Shown here in pieces: positions 22,001 through 28,000 of a DNA stretch of 64,000 nt (the stretch's first letter is position 1; every line of letters starts with the position of its first letter). The position numbers were made by a program. The DNA lies in the NCBI RefSeq assembly GCF_054482525.1, contig NZ_CM137006.1, one strand, 5' to 3'.

Positions 22001-25000
22001 CAGGTTACGCAGTGAAACCGATCGCCGGTCGCTGTGGCAGCAATATCGACCTCGTCAGCCATCATGAAGAGGTGCTGGACAAAACCAGCGGTAAATTTGC
22101 CGAGCAGAAAAACATCTATCAGCAACTGTGGTGTTTGCCGAAAGTGGACGGTAAATACATTCAGGTATGTACCTTCACCGTTGGCGGCAACTACGGTGGG
22201 ACGTGTTTGCGCGGTGATGAATCACTGGTCATCAAAAAAGAGAGTGATATTGAACCGTTAATTGTGGTGAAAAAGTAATACATGTTGTAGCAACCCCGTA
22301 CTGATTATGAAGAATAATCAGTACGGGGATTAATCAAAATATTCAATATTTATATATTCCAATATTTATTCATTTCATATGTGAATATATTAACCAGTGG
22401 AATACCTGTGTTTTGATTATTTCTAAAGGTTTTGAATGAATGCTTATTGTCTGATACACAAGAAATAACACTCTTTTTATCGTTAAAAAATGATATTTCA
22501 CTTTGCCCATGCCGTTAAAGTCACTGATAATGCGTCCGTTCGTAAATTCAAAATGGCGTAATCTAATATATGCTAAATTTATTTGTTGGCCTTGATATAT
22601 ACACAGGGCTTTTGTTATTGCTTGCTCTGGCATTTGTGTTGTTCTACGAAGCAATCAATGGTTTTCATGACACGGCGAATGCGGTGGCAGCCGTTATTTA
22701 TACTCGTGCCATGCAACCACAACTTGCTGTGGTGATGGCGGCATTTTTTAACTTTTTTGGCGTGTTATTGGGCGGACTTAGCGTTGCCTATGCCATTGTC
22801 CATATGTTGCCAACCGATTTGTTGCTGAATATGGGGTCAACCCACGGCCTGGCGATGGTCTTTTCCATGCTGCTGGCGGCGATTATCTGGAACCTGGGAA
22901 CGTGGTTCTTCGGTTTACCGGCCTCCAGTTCGCACACCTTGATTGGTGCGATTATCGGCATCGGTTTAACCAACGCGCTGTTAACCGGCTCATCGGTGAT
23001 GGATGCGTTAAACCTGCGTGAAGTGACCAAAATTTTCTCCTCGCTGATTGTTTCCCCTATCGTCGGCCTGGTCATTGCGGGAGGCCTGATATTCCTGCTG
23101 CGACGTTACTGGAGCGGGACGAAAAAGCGTGACCGTATTCACCGCATTCCGGAAGATCGCAAAAAGAAAAAAGGCAAACGTAAACCGCCATTCTGGACGC
23201 GTATTGCGCTGATTGTTTCCGCTGCGGGCGTGGCGTTTTCGCACGGCGCGAACGACGGACAAAAAGGGATCGGCCTGGTAATGCTGGTACTGGTGGGGAT
23301 TGCCCCTGCTGGCTTCGTCGTCAATATGAATGCGTCCGGCTATGAAATTACCCGTACCCGCGATGCCGTTACCAACTTCGAACACTACCTGCAACAGCAT
23401 CCTGAACTGCCGCAGAAGTTGATTGCGATGGAACCTCCATTGCCTGCAGCATCGACTGATGGCACGCAAGTAACAGAGTTTCACTGTCATCCGGCAAATA
23501 CCTTTGATGCTATTGCGCGCGTTAAAACGATGCTGCCAGGCAATATGGAAAGTTACGAGCCGTTAAGCGTGAGTCAGCGCAGCCAGCTGCGCCGCATTAT
23601 GCTGTGCATCTCTGATACCTCCGCGAAGCTAGCGAAACTGCCAGGCGTCAGTAAAGAAGACCAGAACCTGCTGAAAAAACTTCGCAGCGATATGTTAAGC
23701 ACCATTGAGTACGCTCCGGTGTGGATCATCATGGCGGTAGCACTGGCGCTCGGCATTGGCACCATGATTGGCTGGCGTCGTGTAGCGATGACCATCGGTG
23801 AGAAGATTGGTAAGCGCGGCATGACGTATGCGCAAGGCATGGCGGCACAAATGACGGCGGCAGTGTCTATCGGTCTTGCCAGTTATATTGGGATGCCCGT
23901 CTCCACAACACACGTCCTCTCGTCTGCAGTTGCAGGGACGATGGTGGTGGACGGCGGTGGGTTACAGCGTAAAACGGTAACCAGCATCCTGATGGCGTGG
24001 GTATTTACTTTACCGGCGGCAATTTTTCTTTCTGGTGGGCTGTACTGGATAGCATTGCAGTTGATTTAACCTTCCTGAAAATGCCCGGTCCTGGCGATCG
24101 GGCATTTCCATTTTTGACTAGTGATAACCACGCGCGGTCATAAAATCCGTAATCGCTTTTTCTGCATCAACCAACACCTGTTCCAGTGGCTGATTGGCAT
24201 CGATATCAACCAGTTGTGCACCACCAAAGGTTAACTGTGGCGTTATGGCAATCTTCCTCGCCAGCGATTCCCGTTTATGGTCGGGTTTACGTGCACAGGC
24301 AACTTCAAGGTCAACATTGAGTTTGATGACCAGATCAGGCTTATGGCTCGCCATCCAGTGAAACGCTTTACGTTCCTGGCTTGCCAGCCATGAGACAAAA
24401 CGACCACCTTCAACGTTAGGTGGGAACACCGTACCATCGTAAGCGCCAGGAATTTGGTCCTGAGGATAACGGTCGGTTAGAACAATTAACCCGCGACGAC
24501 GACAGGCAAGCATATGACGAAAGCGCAGTAAGCGACGGGCGACAAACGCTGTAATTACCAGCGCCGGAACTGGTCCAGGCAATTTTTTTGCTGTTTTCAC
24601 CTGATTTCGTTCAATTGTTTTATGTAAGGATTTTCCCATCAACGGTAATTTTGTCACTGCACGACCGACATTTCCGGCCTGTTTTCCTAAATGAACTCTT
24701 TCGGCAGCACCATATTTTTCGACAACGGTAATAAGATGTTCACACACCGTTGACTTGCCTGAACCATCGCTACCAATAACGGCAATTAATGGAGGTGTTA
24801 TTGACTGCATGAATATATCCTTTAATTTAAATATCCATTAAAAATATTTATTTGGTTAATATGTTTTTATGAAAGCGTAATTCAGGTCAATGTCACAATT
24901 AACCATTGTCACAATAAGGTTGAACGGATATTCTGAGCACGGACCACGTAATATTCAATACATTATTTACTGCCGGGTTTTTCGTGAATCAACGTAATAT

Positions 25001-28000
25001 GTCAATAATTAATTCCACGCCAGTGCGTGTTATTGCCATTGTAGGATGTGATGGTTCAGGTAAATCGACCCTCACGGCAAGCCTGGTAAATGAACTGGCA
25101 GCAAGAATGCCAACAGGGTAATGACTCCAACTTATTGATAGTGTTTTATGTTCAGATAATGCCCGATGACTTTGTCATGCAGCTCCACCGATTTTGAGAA
25201 CGACAGCGACTTCCGTCCCAGCCGTGCCAGGTGCTGCCTCAGATTCAGGTTATGCCGCTCAATTCGCTGCGTATATCGCTTGCTGATTACGTGCAGCTTT
25301 CCCTTCAGGCGGGATTCATACAGCGGCCAGCCATCCGTCATCCATATCACCACGTCAAAGGGTGACAGCAGGCTCATAAGACGCCCCAGCGTCGCCATAG
25401 TGCGTTCACCGAATACGTGCGCAACAACCGTCTTCCGGAGACTGTCATACGCGTAAAACAGCCAGCGCTGGCGCGATTTAGCCCCGACATAGCCCCACTG
25501 TTCGTCCATTTCCGCGCAGACGATGACGTCACTGCCCGGCTGTATGCGCGAGGTTACCGACTGCGGCCTGAGTTTTTTAAGTGACGTAAAATCGTGTTGA
25601 GGCCAACGCCCATAATGCGGGCTGTTGCCCGGCATCCAACGCCATTCATGGCCATATCAATGATTTTCTGGTGCGTACCGGGTTGAGAAGCGGTGTAAGT
25701 GAACTGCAGTTGCCATGTTTTACGGCAGTGAGAGCAGAGATAGCGCTGATGTCCGGCGGTGCTTTTGCCGTTACGCACCACCCCGTCAGTAGCTGAACAG
25801 GAGGGACAGCTGATAGAAACAGAAGCCACTGGAGCACCTCAAAAACACCATCATACACTAAATCAGTAAGTTGGCAGCATCACCCAATACAGGTGCCAAA
25901 CGGTGTTAACCCGTTGTCACTAAATTGCAGTCGCTCGCCAGCAAGGCGCGCATATTTATCGTATAGCCCCATTATTTATTCTCCAGCCATGGAAGTAGAG
26001 TTTCCATTAATTGCGCAGGGGTTTTGACATCCAGCAGAATATTAATAGGAATGGAAATATCGAATCTGTCTTCCAGCATCATTAAGAGATCCATCACTTT
26101 GATCGACTCCAGGCCAAGATCGTTGACGAGATCGCTGTCGGGCTTAATTTCCACACCGTTTTCGACCAAATCCTGTAAACAGGAAAGGATGTAATCCATT
26201 ACTATTTCACGATTTACCATAGAAACGTTAACACACCTTTAAACAAGACAATCAAAATAGCCCGTTGCGTAATGCGTGTTCCAGGCTAATCCCGGGAAAC
26301 CAATTAATATCTTCAGAAATACGGTTATTACTTGCCGACCAGTCGGCGTGGGTTAATTCACGAATTTTCGAGCGGGTCAGCATAGGTTCTTTACCTGCCA
26401 GGCGACTCAACGCGGTACTGATATCCGCAAGGCCGGTGAGTACCGGCAGAGGAATGCCAACCATTCGCACGGAACCGCAACGGGCGTCGGCGGCAAGTTG
26501 CTGTACGCGTTGCCAGTCATAGCCGCCGACGACGCCATCGCATAATTCATAGGTTTGCGTCTGTATAGTTTCGGCGCTTAACCACTGACCCACTGCTTGC
26601 GCGAAATCGGTGACGTGCAGAAAAGAGAGCTGTGTATCTGGCGCACCAAGTCGTGGCAGCAGGCCGCGCAGCATCCAGTCAAACAGCGGTTTTAACTCTT
26701 TATCGCCGGGACCATACACGGCTGTCGGGCGAAAAACGCCCAGCGTAATTTCGTCCGCCATTGCTGCCAGTCGTTGCTCGGCGACGTATTTGGATTTTGC
26801 ATACCAGGAGAGCTCGGGATGGCGCGCCGCCAGCGAAGAGATAAACAGAAAACGTTGGCAAAAGCCGCTCTCTTTTGCTGCTTGCATCAGGCGCAGGCTG
26901 CCGTCAACGTTACAGCGGGTGAAAATCTCTTCTTTGTGCCCGCGCACTTGCCCGGCGCAATGGACCACTACGCTGGCTCCGGCAACCAGCTCGCTAAGTG
27001 AATGAGTATCTTCCAGCGAACCGCGCACCCAGGTGAGATTATCATTGACGTGAGCGCGGGCAGTACGCGTCAATGCGCGAACGTGAAAGCCGCGGGCGAG
27101 CAGGTTATCGATAATATATTTACCGATAAACCCGGTAGCGCCCGTCACCGCGACAGTTTGATTCATGCCAGGGATTCCTGCACATTAAGACTGGCAGCAT
27201 AAGCCTTCTGATAACGTTTTTTCGCTTCCGCACGGGCAGGCTTGCCGGAGGACGTTCGGGGAATACTGTGGGGCGGCAACAGATCGATAGCCGCGGTCAC
27301 GCCAAATTCGCTTTGGATCCGTGCCGCCAGCGCGTGGATAAGCTGCCCGCGACGTTCTTCGTCGCTGATCCGACACTGGATCTGCAAAATGATTTTTTCC
27401 TGGGCGGTAACAAAAGCAATCGCATCGCCAGAATGAATTTCCGGTTCCTGTTCCGCTATATATTCAATATCCTGCGGCCAGATATTACGGCCACGAATAA
27501 TAATCAGATCTTTAATGCGTCCGGTGACATACAGATAACCGTCCAGCAGATAACCGAGGTCGCCGGTGTCTAACCAGCCCGTCGCGGCAATCTCGTCTTG
27601 CGAAACCTGGTCGCCAAAGTAACCGCTCATCAGACTGGGACCGGAGATGCAAATATGGCCTACCACACGTTCCGCGACCGGCATACCTGCTTCATTGCGG
27701 ATTTCAATACCATGTTCCGGCAACGCTTTGCCGCAGTTGACGAAAGTCGATACGGCGCGTGTCTCTGCACCCGGCGCGACGGCTTTACCCTGATATTCGA
27801 GGATGTCGCGATCCACTTCGTTAACCACAACCCCGGAGGCTTCATCAGAGAAGCTGACAGCCAGCGCATTTTCTGCCAGTCCGTAGCACGGCATGAAAGT
27901 TTTATCGTCAAAGTTGACCTGACGGAAACATTCAGCGAATTGATGGAGTTGTTCTGCGGAGATGGGTTCTGCACCAATACCAGCGACGCGCCAGCAGGAA

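Follow-up and report, generated by a model that had tools for sequence, protein, structure and literature searches.

The closest described counterparts of the locus studied here are the sphingolipid gene clusters of Escherichia coli and Caulobacter crescentus and the archaeal polyphosphate kinase PPK3. In E. coli BL21, the dihydroceramide genes have been identified as yghO/aca (ECD_02850), aasR (ECD_02851, encoding a fatty acyl-AMP ligase, FAAL), epi/cerR (ECD_02852), acpR (ECD_02853), and spt (ECD_02854); biochemically, E. coli AasR loads AcpR, and E. coli Spt favors acyl-AcpR (PMC9386255). A "sphingolipid operon" with LptF2/G2 has been drawn for E. coli UTI89 beside those of Caulobacter and Sphingomonas, and the Caulobacter LptF2/G2 are required for the export of an anionic sphingolipid, together with the housekeeping LptB (bioRxiv 10.64898/2026.04.12.717747). 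The C. crescentus ceramide kinase CpgB is a diacylglycerol (DAG)-kinase/sphingosine-kinase-like enzyme with a GGDG motif (PMC10331486). PPK3 of Sulfolobus acidocaldarius (Saci_2019/Saci_2020) comprises two paralogs resembling thymidylate kinase (Tmk) that are encoded with a CHAD protein (PMC12995831), and CHAD domains have been characterized as inorganic-polyphosphate-binding modules (bioRxiv 10.1101/567040). Here we analyzed a 64,000-nucleotide stretch of an E. coli chromosome (NCBI RefSeq assembly GCF_054482525.1, contig NZ_CM137006.1), hereafter the window, in which the divergent P-loop genes yghT and yghS lie beside several of these ceramide genes. A preceding sequence-only reading had proposed that the two are paralogs sharing a promoter and possibly a role with the FAAL cluster and yghO. 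We find that yghT, the yghS stub of the window, and yghR, which has been deleted from it, are three ancient paralogs of a strongly basic, thymidylate-kinase-fold P-loop family that forms part of the sphingolipid island of proteobacteria. Their products are predicted phosphotransferases of the Tmk fold, with an acceptor that differs from that of Tmk and is probably polyanionic.

Walker A motifs are indeed present in both N-termini, one encoded by the yghT open reading frame (ORF; 24118–24810, minus strand) and the other by the plus strand at the start region of yghS, which reads ...VIAIVGCDGSGKST... The yghS stub translates from its GTG as (V)NQRNMSIINSTPVRVIAIVGCDGSGKSTLTASLVNELAARMPT, and its Walker A motif is GCDGSGKST. 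The suggested paralogy also holds. In BLASTP, YghT matches the full-length YghS of another strain with E = 2e-54 (37% identity, 217 aa) and the stub of the window with E = 3e-6; YghT, YghS, and YghR are mutually 34–37% identical, and their genes are adjacent in intact strains. In a Foldseek search with the AlphaFold2 model of YghT (predicted local distance difference test score of 90 and predicted template modeling score of 0.86), the best solved match was the S. aureus thymidylate kinase (E = 7e-9, TM of approximately 0.6), and no sulfotransferase or ABC ATPase appeared among the top matches. The fold, for which the sequence-only reading had offered a kinase or a sulfotransferase, is that of a thymidylate-kinase-like kinase. 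An hhalign comparison with E. coli Tmk, whose sequence was checked against 4tmk, gave E = 2.9e-6 and aligned the P-loop, the DRx motif (D113-R114), and the LID arginine R174 with Tmk. The Walker A, DRxP, and RKP(D/E)H motifs are retained in 61–86 orthologs per paralog class, with DRxP kept in all 86 YghT, all 62 YghS, and all 61 YghR orthologs. With these catalytic motifs retained in the three classes, all three paralogs appear, from sequence, to be catalytically competent. The proteins carry net charges of +12, +12, and +9, versus −6 for Tmk. On the acceptor side of YghT, residues 41–107 have a net charge of +15, and a basic, partly amphipathic insert at approximately residues 41–80 has no aligned Tmk counterpart.

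The RefSeq product name of these proteins is "dTMP kinase", which raises the question of whether they are genuine dTMP kinases, that is, redundant copies of tmk. Thymidylate kinases are their best fold and profile matches, and the Tmk-type P-loop aspartate and DRx motif are present. The profile scores, however, are low. Against NCBIfam equivalog cut-offs of 83.25 bits (TIGR00041) and 193 bits (NF005923), the dTMP-kinase models score 25.8 and 26 bits for YghT, 22.7 bits for YghS, and 32 bits for YghR; against a Pfam gathering score of 27 bits (PF02223, Thymidylate_kin), the values are 21.1, 17.5, and 26.7 bits, respectively. The NCBIfam values, 17–32 bits overall, lie far below their cut-offs, with YghT at 26 bits versus 83 and 193, and the family is not that of the housekeeping dTMP kinase. 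The acceptor site also differs. In E. coli Tmk, we take F74, R78, S104, T105, Y108, and Q109 to be the residues that bind thymine or dTMP; these columns fall on T87, A91, and Q117–G122 of YghT without a residue match, the alignment of the helix bearing F74 and R78 being of low confidence. In place of S104, T105, Y108, and Q109, the family has an invariant PQ-x-x-x-PG. Considering also the opposite net charge, the basic acceptor-side insert, and the occurrence of three paralogs within one envelope-lipid island, a dTMP-kinase function is highly improbable. Because of the low scores, the unmatched acceptor residues, and the charge, we regard the RefSeq name as an over-annotation, which is probably spreading through thousands of genomes. 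The Prokaryotic Genome Annotation Pipeline applies it to yghT and yghS at 23–26 bits versus cut-offs of 83–193 bits.

In intact strains, as annotated in O111:H2, the yghT/yghS/yghR triad and the ceramide genes share an island of about 13 kb. Its order is yghT, followed by yghS-yghR-yghQ (MOP flippase)-CHAD protein-ytfJ-like-lptF2-lptG2, then spt-acpR-cerR-aasR, and finally yghO. Co-occurrence was assessed with one genome per GTDB species, yielding 79 loci with a YghT relative and flanks of up to 10 kb on each side, whose gene content was scored by tblastn with all island proteins. The divergent triad, with yghT facing yghS-yghR, occurs throughout the Enterobacterales and also in Rhodanobacter, Luteibacter, and several beta- and gammaproteobacterial metagenome-assembled genomes (MAGs). 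An spt gene is no more than 10 kb away in 46 of the 79 loci, including those of Xanthomonadales and betaproteobacterial MAGs, and a yghQ-like flippase is found in 48. The most constant partner is a homolog of a 274-aa CHAD-like gene (59 loci). Gene order varies by genus: the spt operon may flank the triad on one side or the other, and yghO is sometimes the immediate neighbor of yghR. Even so, the triad keeps its place next to the ceramide genes across genera. Co-occurrence is therefore conserved, and the role that the sequence-only reading thought the P-loop genes might share with the FAAL cluster and yghO stands for the family: these are published dihydroceramide genes, located in the same island and linked to the triad across genera. 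It does not stand for the window itself, where the direct adjacency was made by a deletion, spt is gone, and no working pathway remains.

The 274-aa partner (19813–20637 of the intact O111:H2 locus, L003) is itself deleted in the window. It has a CHAD fold, a two-fold helical bundle with conserved histidine and basic residues, in which 18 basic or histidine positions are conserved. This partner brings the island close to PPK3. In both systems, Tmk-superfamily paralogs misnamed dTMP kinase are encoded together, separately from the canonical tmk and with a CHAD gene in the cluster; in both, the ATP site is kept, the dTMP site is lost, and the acceptor region is positively charged. The E. coli island differs in having three paralogs instead of two. 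Moreover, the PPK3 regulatory subunit lacks the DRx arginine, whereas all E. coli-type paralogs keep it and thus include no obvious regulatory subunit. The E. coli-type kinases also sit in a context of sphingolipid synthesis and export; none of ppx, sixA, pst, and ppk is annotated as a neighbor in the intact E. coli island, and a His_Phos_1 gene occurs in one distant locus (L085). The parallel with PPK3 is striking but incomplete.

The sphingolipid locus of Caulobacter, of the Caulobacter/Rhodobacteria type (CC_1152–CC_1168), has five ceramide genes, LptF2/G2 paralogs, and a MOP-type flippase, as does the E. coli island. The head-group modules are distinct, consisting of CpgA–D, CC_1153, and CC_1158 in Caulobacter and of the three Tmk-like kinases, the CHAD protein, and a YtfJ-like periplasmic protein in the E. 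coli type. As a soluble kinase in a sphingolipid locus that starts an anionic head group, CpgB is a candidate functional analog of the Ygh kinases. The latter have the P-loop Tmk fold, and a Pfam search with YghT returned no DAGK-domain match. Homology of YghT, YghS, and YghR to CpgB, which is DAG-kinase-like with a GGDG motif, was rejected. Since the two kinds of kinase are unrelated, any function they share would be convergent.

Taking fold, charge, and neighborhood together, we hold it slightly more probable than an even chance that the kinase trio uses ATP to equip ceramide or a precursor of it with an anionic head group rich in phosphate, which the CHAD protein binds, and that YghQ flips and LptB-F2G2 extract the product. 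On this proposal, and following published work on homologs, AasR, AcpR, Spt, CerR, and YghO would produce dihydroceramide at the cytoplasmic face of the inner membrane. YghT, YghS, and YghR would then use ATP to place the anionic, phosphate-rich head group on the lipid or its precursor; as Tmk-type enzymes put phosphate on phosphate, this step would probably include anhydride transfer. The CHAD-fold partner may bind the oligophosphate moiety. Finally, as homologs studied elsewhere suggest, YghQ would flip the product, and LptF2/LptG2 with LptB would extract it toward the outer membrane. A more specific form of the proposal is a speculative possibility: the three kinases and the CHAD protein could constitute a lipid-directed, PPK3-like machine that extends ceramide-P to -PP and to -PPP or longer, with YghQ flipping the resulting pyrophosphate-type lipid and LptB-F2G2 exporting it.

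Several observations weigh against a phosphorylated ceramide head group. The kinase substrate is deduced only from fold, charge, and gene neighborhood. The literature searched contains no experiment on YghT, YghS, or YghR and describes no E. coli sphingolipid product, and Caulobacter builds its anionic sphingolipid with unrelated enzymes such as the DAG-kinase-like CpgB. In one screen, K-12 strains with yghQ, yghR, yghS, or yghT knocked out showed no phenotype of note, a result qualified by the lack of ceramide genes in K-12. The solved cPPK3 homolog 2plr matches with E = 1e-4 in the P-loop region only, compared with 1e-10 for canonical Tmks, and a specific sequence kinship to it was rejected on account of this limited alignment. 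Furthermore, no spt was seen in the flanks available for 33 of the 79 loci, a set that includes short contigs as well as contexts plainly unrelated to sphingolipids. The kinase family thus extends beyond sphingolipid chemistry.

The spt-free loci have envelope-related neighborhoods of their own. In one of them (L060, 6597–12074), a kinase and a CHAD-like protein are accompanied by a GT4 glycosyltransferase, a sugar nucleotidyltransferase, two lipid phosphatases of the PAP2 type, and a methyltransferase resembling PEMT, and no MOP-type flippase was identified in the portion examined. Another (L085, 7040–14053) encodes a GT4 protein, two kinases, a His_Phos_1 protein of the SixA/PhoE type, a MOP-like protein, a CHAD-like protein (E = 1e-68 to the family profile), and MatE. 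A further spt-free context combines a MOP flippase with a PEMT-like gene and a kinase. These loci suggest that ceramide is not the only lipid decorated by the module. An exhaustive profile search recovered 2,144 kinase-family clusters at 50% identity, including fusions in which the kinase domain is joined to a MOP flippase, with or without a weak NTP_transf_5 match, or to GT4 (e.g., P0217, P0264, and P0258). About 60 proteins of approximately 500 aa combine the kinase domain with an unassigned N-terminal domain of approximately 260 aa that has weak NTP_transf_5 matches only. The idea that these N-terminal halves are CHAD-like was rejected, since phmmer with the 274-aa protein gave no match among all 150 representatives. 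The conserved core is therefore one or more kinases, the CHAD-like protein, and a MOP flippase; in E. coli and many of its relatives, this core is found in a sphingolipid context.

Some of these fusions bear on the possibility that the kinases place phosphate on a soluble precursor of the head group (for example, a sugar or its phosphate, or a metabolite resembling a nucleotide), which a transferase later attaches, so that the lipid is not their substrate. The Tmk/dNK fold classically works on soluble nucleotides, and relatives of the kinases are fused to or adjoin GT4 proteins, sugar nucleotidyltransferases, and weak NTP_transf_5 domains. The E. coli island, however, contains no glycosyltransferase, nucleotidyltransferase, or cytidine diphosphate (CDP)-alcohol transferase for such an attachment. 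In addition, the very basic, partly amphipathic acceptor insert is in keeping with an anionic lipid or the surface of a membrane, and the CHAD partner indicates an oligophosphate over a sugar, which leaves a soluble substrate unlikely. The CHAD partner would also fit a polyphosphate kinase of the PPK3 kind, or a nucleotide kinase dependent on polyphosphate, that serves polyphosphate or energy metabolism in general and has sphingolipid neighbors by accident. The linkage to spt and the ceramide genes, which outlasts several rearrangements of gene order across genera, argues against such an accident, as do the genes that recur nearby, all of them envelope-lipid genes (flippase, Lpt permeases, GT4, and PAP2). 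The intact island has no annotated ppx or ppk, all three paralogs carry the DRx arginine that the PPK3 regulatory subunit lacks, and the sequence match to 2plr is confined to the P-loop. E. coli already owns PPK1 and PPX. We therefore judge a role in general polyphosphate metabolism to be quite unlikely.

The position of the kinase genes next to lptF2/lptG2 and the size of their P-loop products, close to that of LptB, would also be compatible with ATPase subunits that power LptF2/G2 or YghQ in place of LptB, the more so as no LptB homolog was found in the sphingolipid loci. Their fold, however, is that of a nucleotide kinase and not of an ABC protein; ABC proteins match through the Walker A segment only, and the Caulobacter LptF2/G2 bind the housekeeping LptB. 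MOP flippases are not known to need an ATPase. An LptB-like role was accordingly rejected on the grounds of fold and of LptB usage in Caulobacter, and an ATPase function in this export step has very little probability. Among the readings considered, phosphorylation of the ceramide head group by the kinase trio accounts best for the charge of the proteins, the CHAD partner, and the linkage to ceramide and export genes.

In the window, the island is degraded. yghS, which the sequence-only reading had treated as a gene, is a stub that ends after 44 codons (39 counted from the ATG at 24999) at 25116, where it is cut by a 768-bp insertion sequence, IS1. The end of IS1 follows directly and begins GGTAATGACTCC...; the bases past 25116, GGTAATGACTCCAACTTATTGATAG..., are the IS1 terminal repeat, and the frame of the stub terminates with ...ARMPTG at a TAA stop within this repeat. 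In the identical stretch of strain 2452, RefSeq records a hypothetical-protein pseudogene ("incomplete; missing C-terminus") followed by the IS1A transposase. The element at 25117–25884 is the sole IS1 copy within the window, and its ends are intact. A 9-bp target duplication was sought at its flanks (...CCAACAG on the left and CAATACAGG on the right) and is not present, as expected for an IS1-associated adjacent deletion. Alignment to the intact O111:H2 locus matched window 19347–25116 to L003 11279–17047 and window 25885–31500 to L003 24507–30119, and the 7,459 bp of L003 between these blocks are replaced in the window by the 768-bp IS1. The deleted segment comprises yghS from codon 45 on, yghR, the full-length MOP flippase gene yghQ, the 274-aa hypothetical gene, a ytfJ-family gene, two lptF/lptG paralogs, and all of spt past codon 29. 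The spt remnant translates as MGLYDKYARLAGERLQFSDNGLTPFGTCI, the same as the N-terminus of the L003 Spt. The yghS stub therefore adjoins the acpR/FAAL genes as an artifact of this deletion. With a single IS1 exactly at the junction and no flanking target duplication, the event resembles other IS1-mediated adjacent deletions and shows nothing unusual. Owing to the loss of spt, the strain can make no sphingoid base, and its ceramide pathway is dead. The yghT of the strain survives intact, though as an orphaned relic that H-NS probably silences behind the AT-rich divergent control region.

Among 5,426 complete genomes of E. coli, 4,735 contain the yghT–yghS region, and 4,089 of the 5,426 have kept 80% or more of the 7,459-bp segment. 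The 7.46-kb island core deleted in the window thus survives in about three quarters of the complete genomes. The exact yghS'-IS1-'spt junction occurs in 5 of the 5,426, and several further genomes share the left junction yet differ to the right of IS1. Strain 2452, which is 100% identical to the window over 24000–26300, has a second IS1A just past aasR (L001, 12925–13622) and then ABC-transporter genes in the place that yghO takes in the window. The genome of the window is therefore related to that of strain 2452 but distinct from it. K-12 suffered an independent loss (L002, 16464–18903), in which a stretch that begins in the 3' part of yghQ, includes the CHAD gene, and ends with aasR is gone, with IS5 in the gap; yghR, yghS, yghT, and yghO are consequently orphans in K-12. 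In enterotoxigenic E. coli (ETEC) O6:H16 and in E54 (L083 and L084), IS1B lies elsewhere in yghS, leaving a 207-bp stub, and yghT is frameshifted in both. In E54, the element has simply inserted; in 2011EL-1370-2, it is accompanied by an inversion reaching lptF2. Because the position in yghS differs, the ETEC junctions were rejected as the same event as that of the window and are independent. The island thus appears to be undergoing repeated erosion across lineages.

The divergent orientation of yghT and yghS across an AT-rich region is borne out, the spacer having a GC content of 29.5–29.8% versus 50.3% for the whole window. Its length, given as 188 bp in the sequence-only reading, is correct up to the ATG at 24999; with the RefSeq start of the 237-aa YghS, the GTG at 24984, it is 173 bp. 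The divergent arrangement was found in 46 genomes with spacers of 141–459 bp, and the GC content is 25–40% in all Enterobacterales examined. The claim of a shared promoter fared less well. A scan with the sigma-70 consensus found two sites in the spacer versus 2.5 expected by chance, which is not above shuffled sequence. The spacer holds a direct repeat, TGTCACAAT, at 24891–24899 and 24907–24915, and its second copy overlaps the sole plus-strand sigma-70-like match (24906–24934). A conserved operator was considered and rejected, since among the 46 spacers compared the repeat is restricted to Escherichia and a few close relatives. yghS is listed among the genes of the H-NS regulon and is 3.1-fold up on SlyA over-expression in K-12 (PMC5797941), and a weak FlhDC peak from systematic evolution of ligands by exponential enrichment falls in the spacer (PMC9962212). 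The AT-richness and the H-NS and SlyA data fit a silenced, horizontally mobile island, while a bidirectional promoter shared by yghT and yghS is an assumption that the regulatory data do not prove.

yghR, yghS, and yghT are long-standing E. coli y-genes, and their RefSeq label is contradicted by the present evidence. The gene names are already known, the island has been drawn in figures, and the identities of the ceramide genes are published. Our literature searches on yghT, yghS, yghR, yghQ, and yghO returned incidental mentions only, in regulon tables, knock-out lists, and genome-reduction lists; they found no paper that gives yghR, yghS, or yghT a role, recognizes the CHAD partner, or notes the parallel with PPK3, and no mutant lipidomics on these three genes. 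What appears to be new is that Tmk-superfamily kinases have probably been re-purposed in an envelope-lipid pathway, and we place the kinases and the newly recognized CHAD-fold partner as the probable head-group module of the sphingolipid island. A phosphate-rich sphingolipid exported through Lpt paralogs would be relevant, in pathogenic E. coli, to the charge of the outer membrane, to polymyxin susceptibility, and to recognition by the host. If a PPK3-like machine were at work, a novel phosphate-capped sphingolipid would be displayed on the surface of the majority of wild E. coli and of numerous other proteobacteria, and the transition from Tmk to polyphosphate kinase would have a third, bacterial, membrane-linked use. 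As insertion-sequence deletions have removed the ceramide core, K-12 and the window strain are poor models for yghR, yghS, and yghT. The degraded locus is ordinary as a sequence feature, and its interest lies in the lead it gives to the head group of the E. coli sphingolipid.

Within the window, the genes follow the order hyb genes, yghU, gss, pitB, the region under study (Table 1), yghO, glcC, and glcDEFGBA. RefSeq annotates yghT in a region 100% identical to window 24000–26300, and the protein accession, WP_001190781.1, is the same in K-12.

Table 1. Coordinates of the yghT–yghO region in the window
Feature	Position	Strand	Description
yghT	24118–24810	−	Intact; 230-aa thymidylate-kinase-fold P-loop phosphotransferase (probable function)
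Divergent AT-rich intergenic region yghT/yghS	24811–24983		Right edge set by the RefSeq GTG start of yghS
yghS 5' remnant	24984–25116	+	44 codons, joined to IS1
IS1 (IS1A type)	25117–25884	− (transposase)	768 bp; InsA and InsB ORFs at 25132–25829
spt 5' remnant	25885–25971	−	Serine palmitoyltransferase; first 29 codons only
acpR	25972–26220	−	Specialized acyl carrier protein of the ceramide pathway; Pfam PP-binding, E = 1e-13; ECD_02853 homolog
cerR/epi	26252–27166	−	NAD-dependent epimerase/dehydratase-family reductase; Pfam Epimerase, E = 5e-23; ECD_02852 homolog
aasR	27163–28854	−	Fatty acyl-AMP ligase, acyl-AcpR synthetase; Pfam AMP-binding, E = 1e-58; ECD_02851 homolog
yghO	29258–30400	+	ORF; aca/cerS-type N-acyltransferase of dihydroceramide synthesis; ECD_02850 "aca" in PMC9386255

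For aasR, RefSeq places the start at 28854, and the longest ORF extends to 28914. Searches of Pfam and NCBIfam with the yghO product gave no matches. Between the convergent pitB and yghT, a GC-rich hairpin at 24079–24107 with a 12-bp stem (AAATGCCCGGTC...GATCGGGCATTT) looks, from its sequence, like a bidirectional terminator. At the opposite end of the island, aasR and yghO are separated by a second AT-rich divergent spacer (28915–29257; 343 bp, 31.8% GC), which mirrors the yghT–yghS arrangement.

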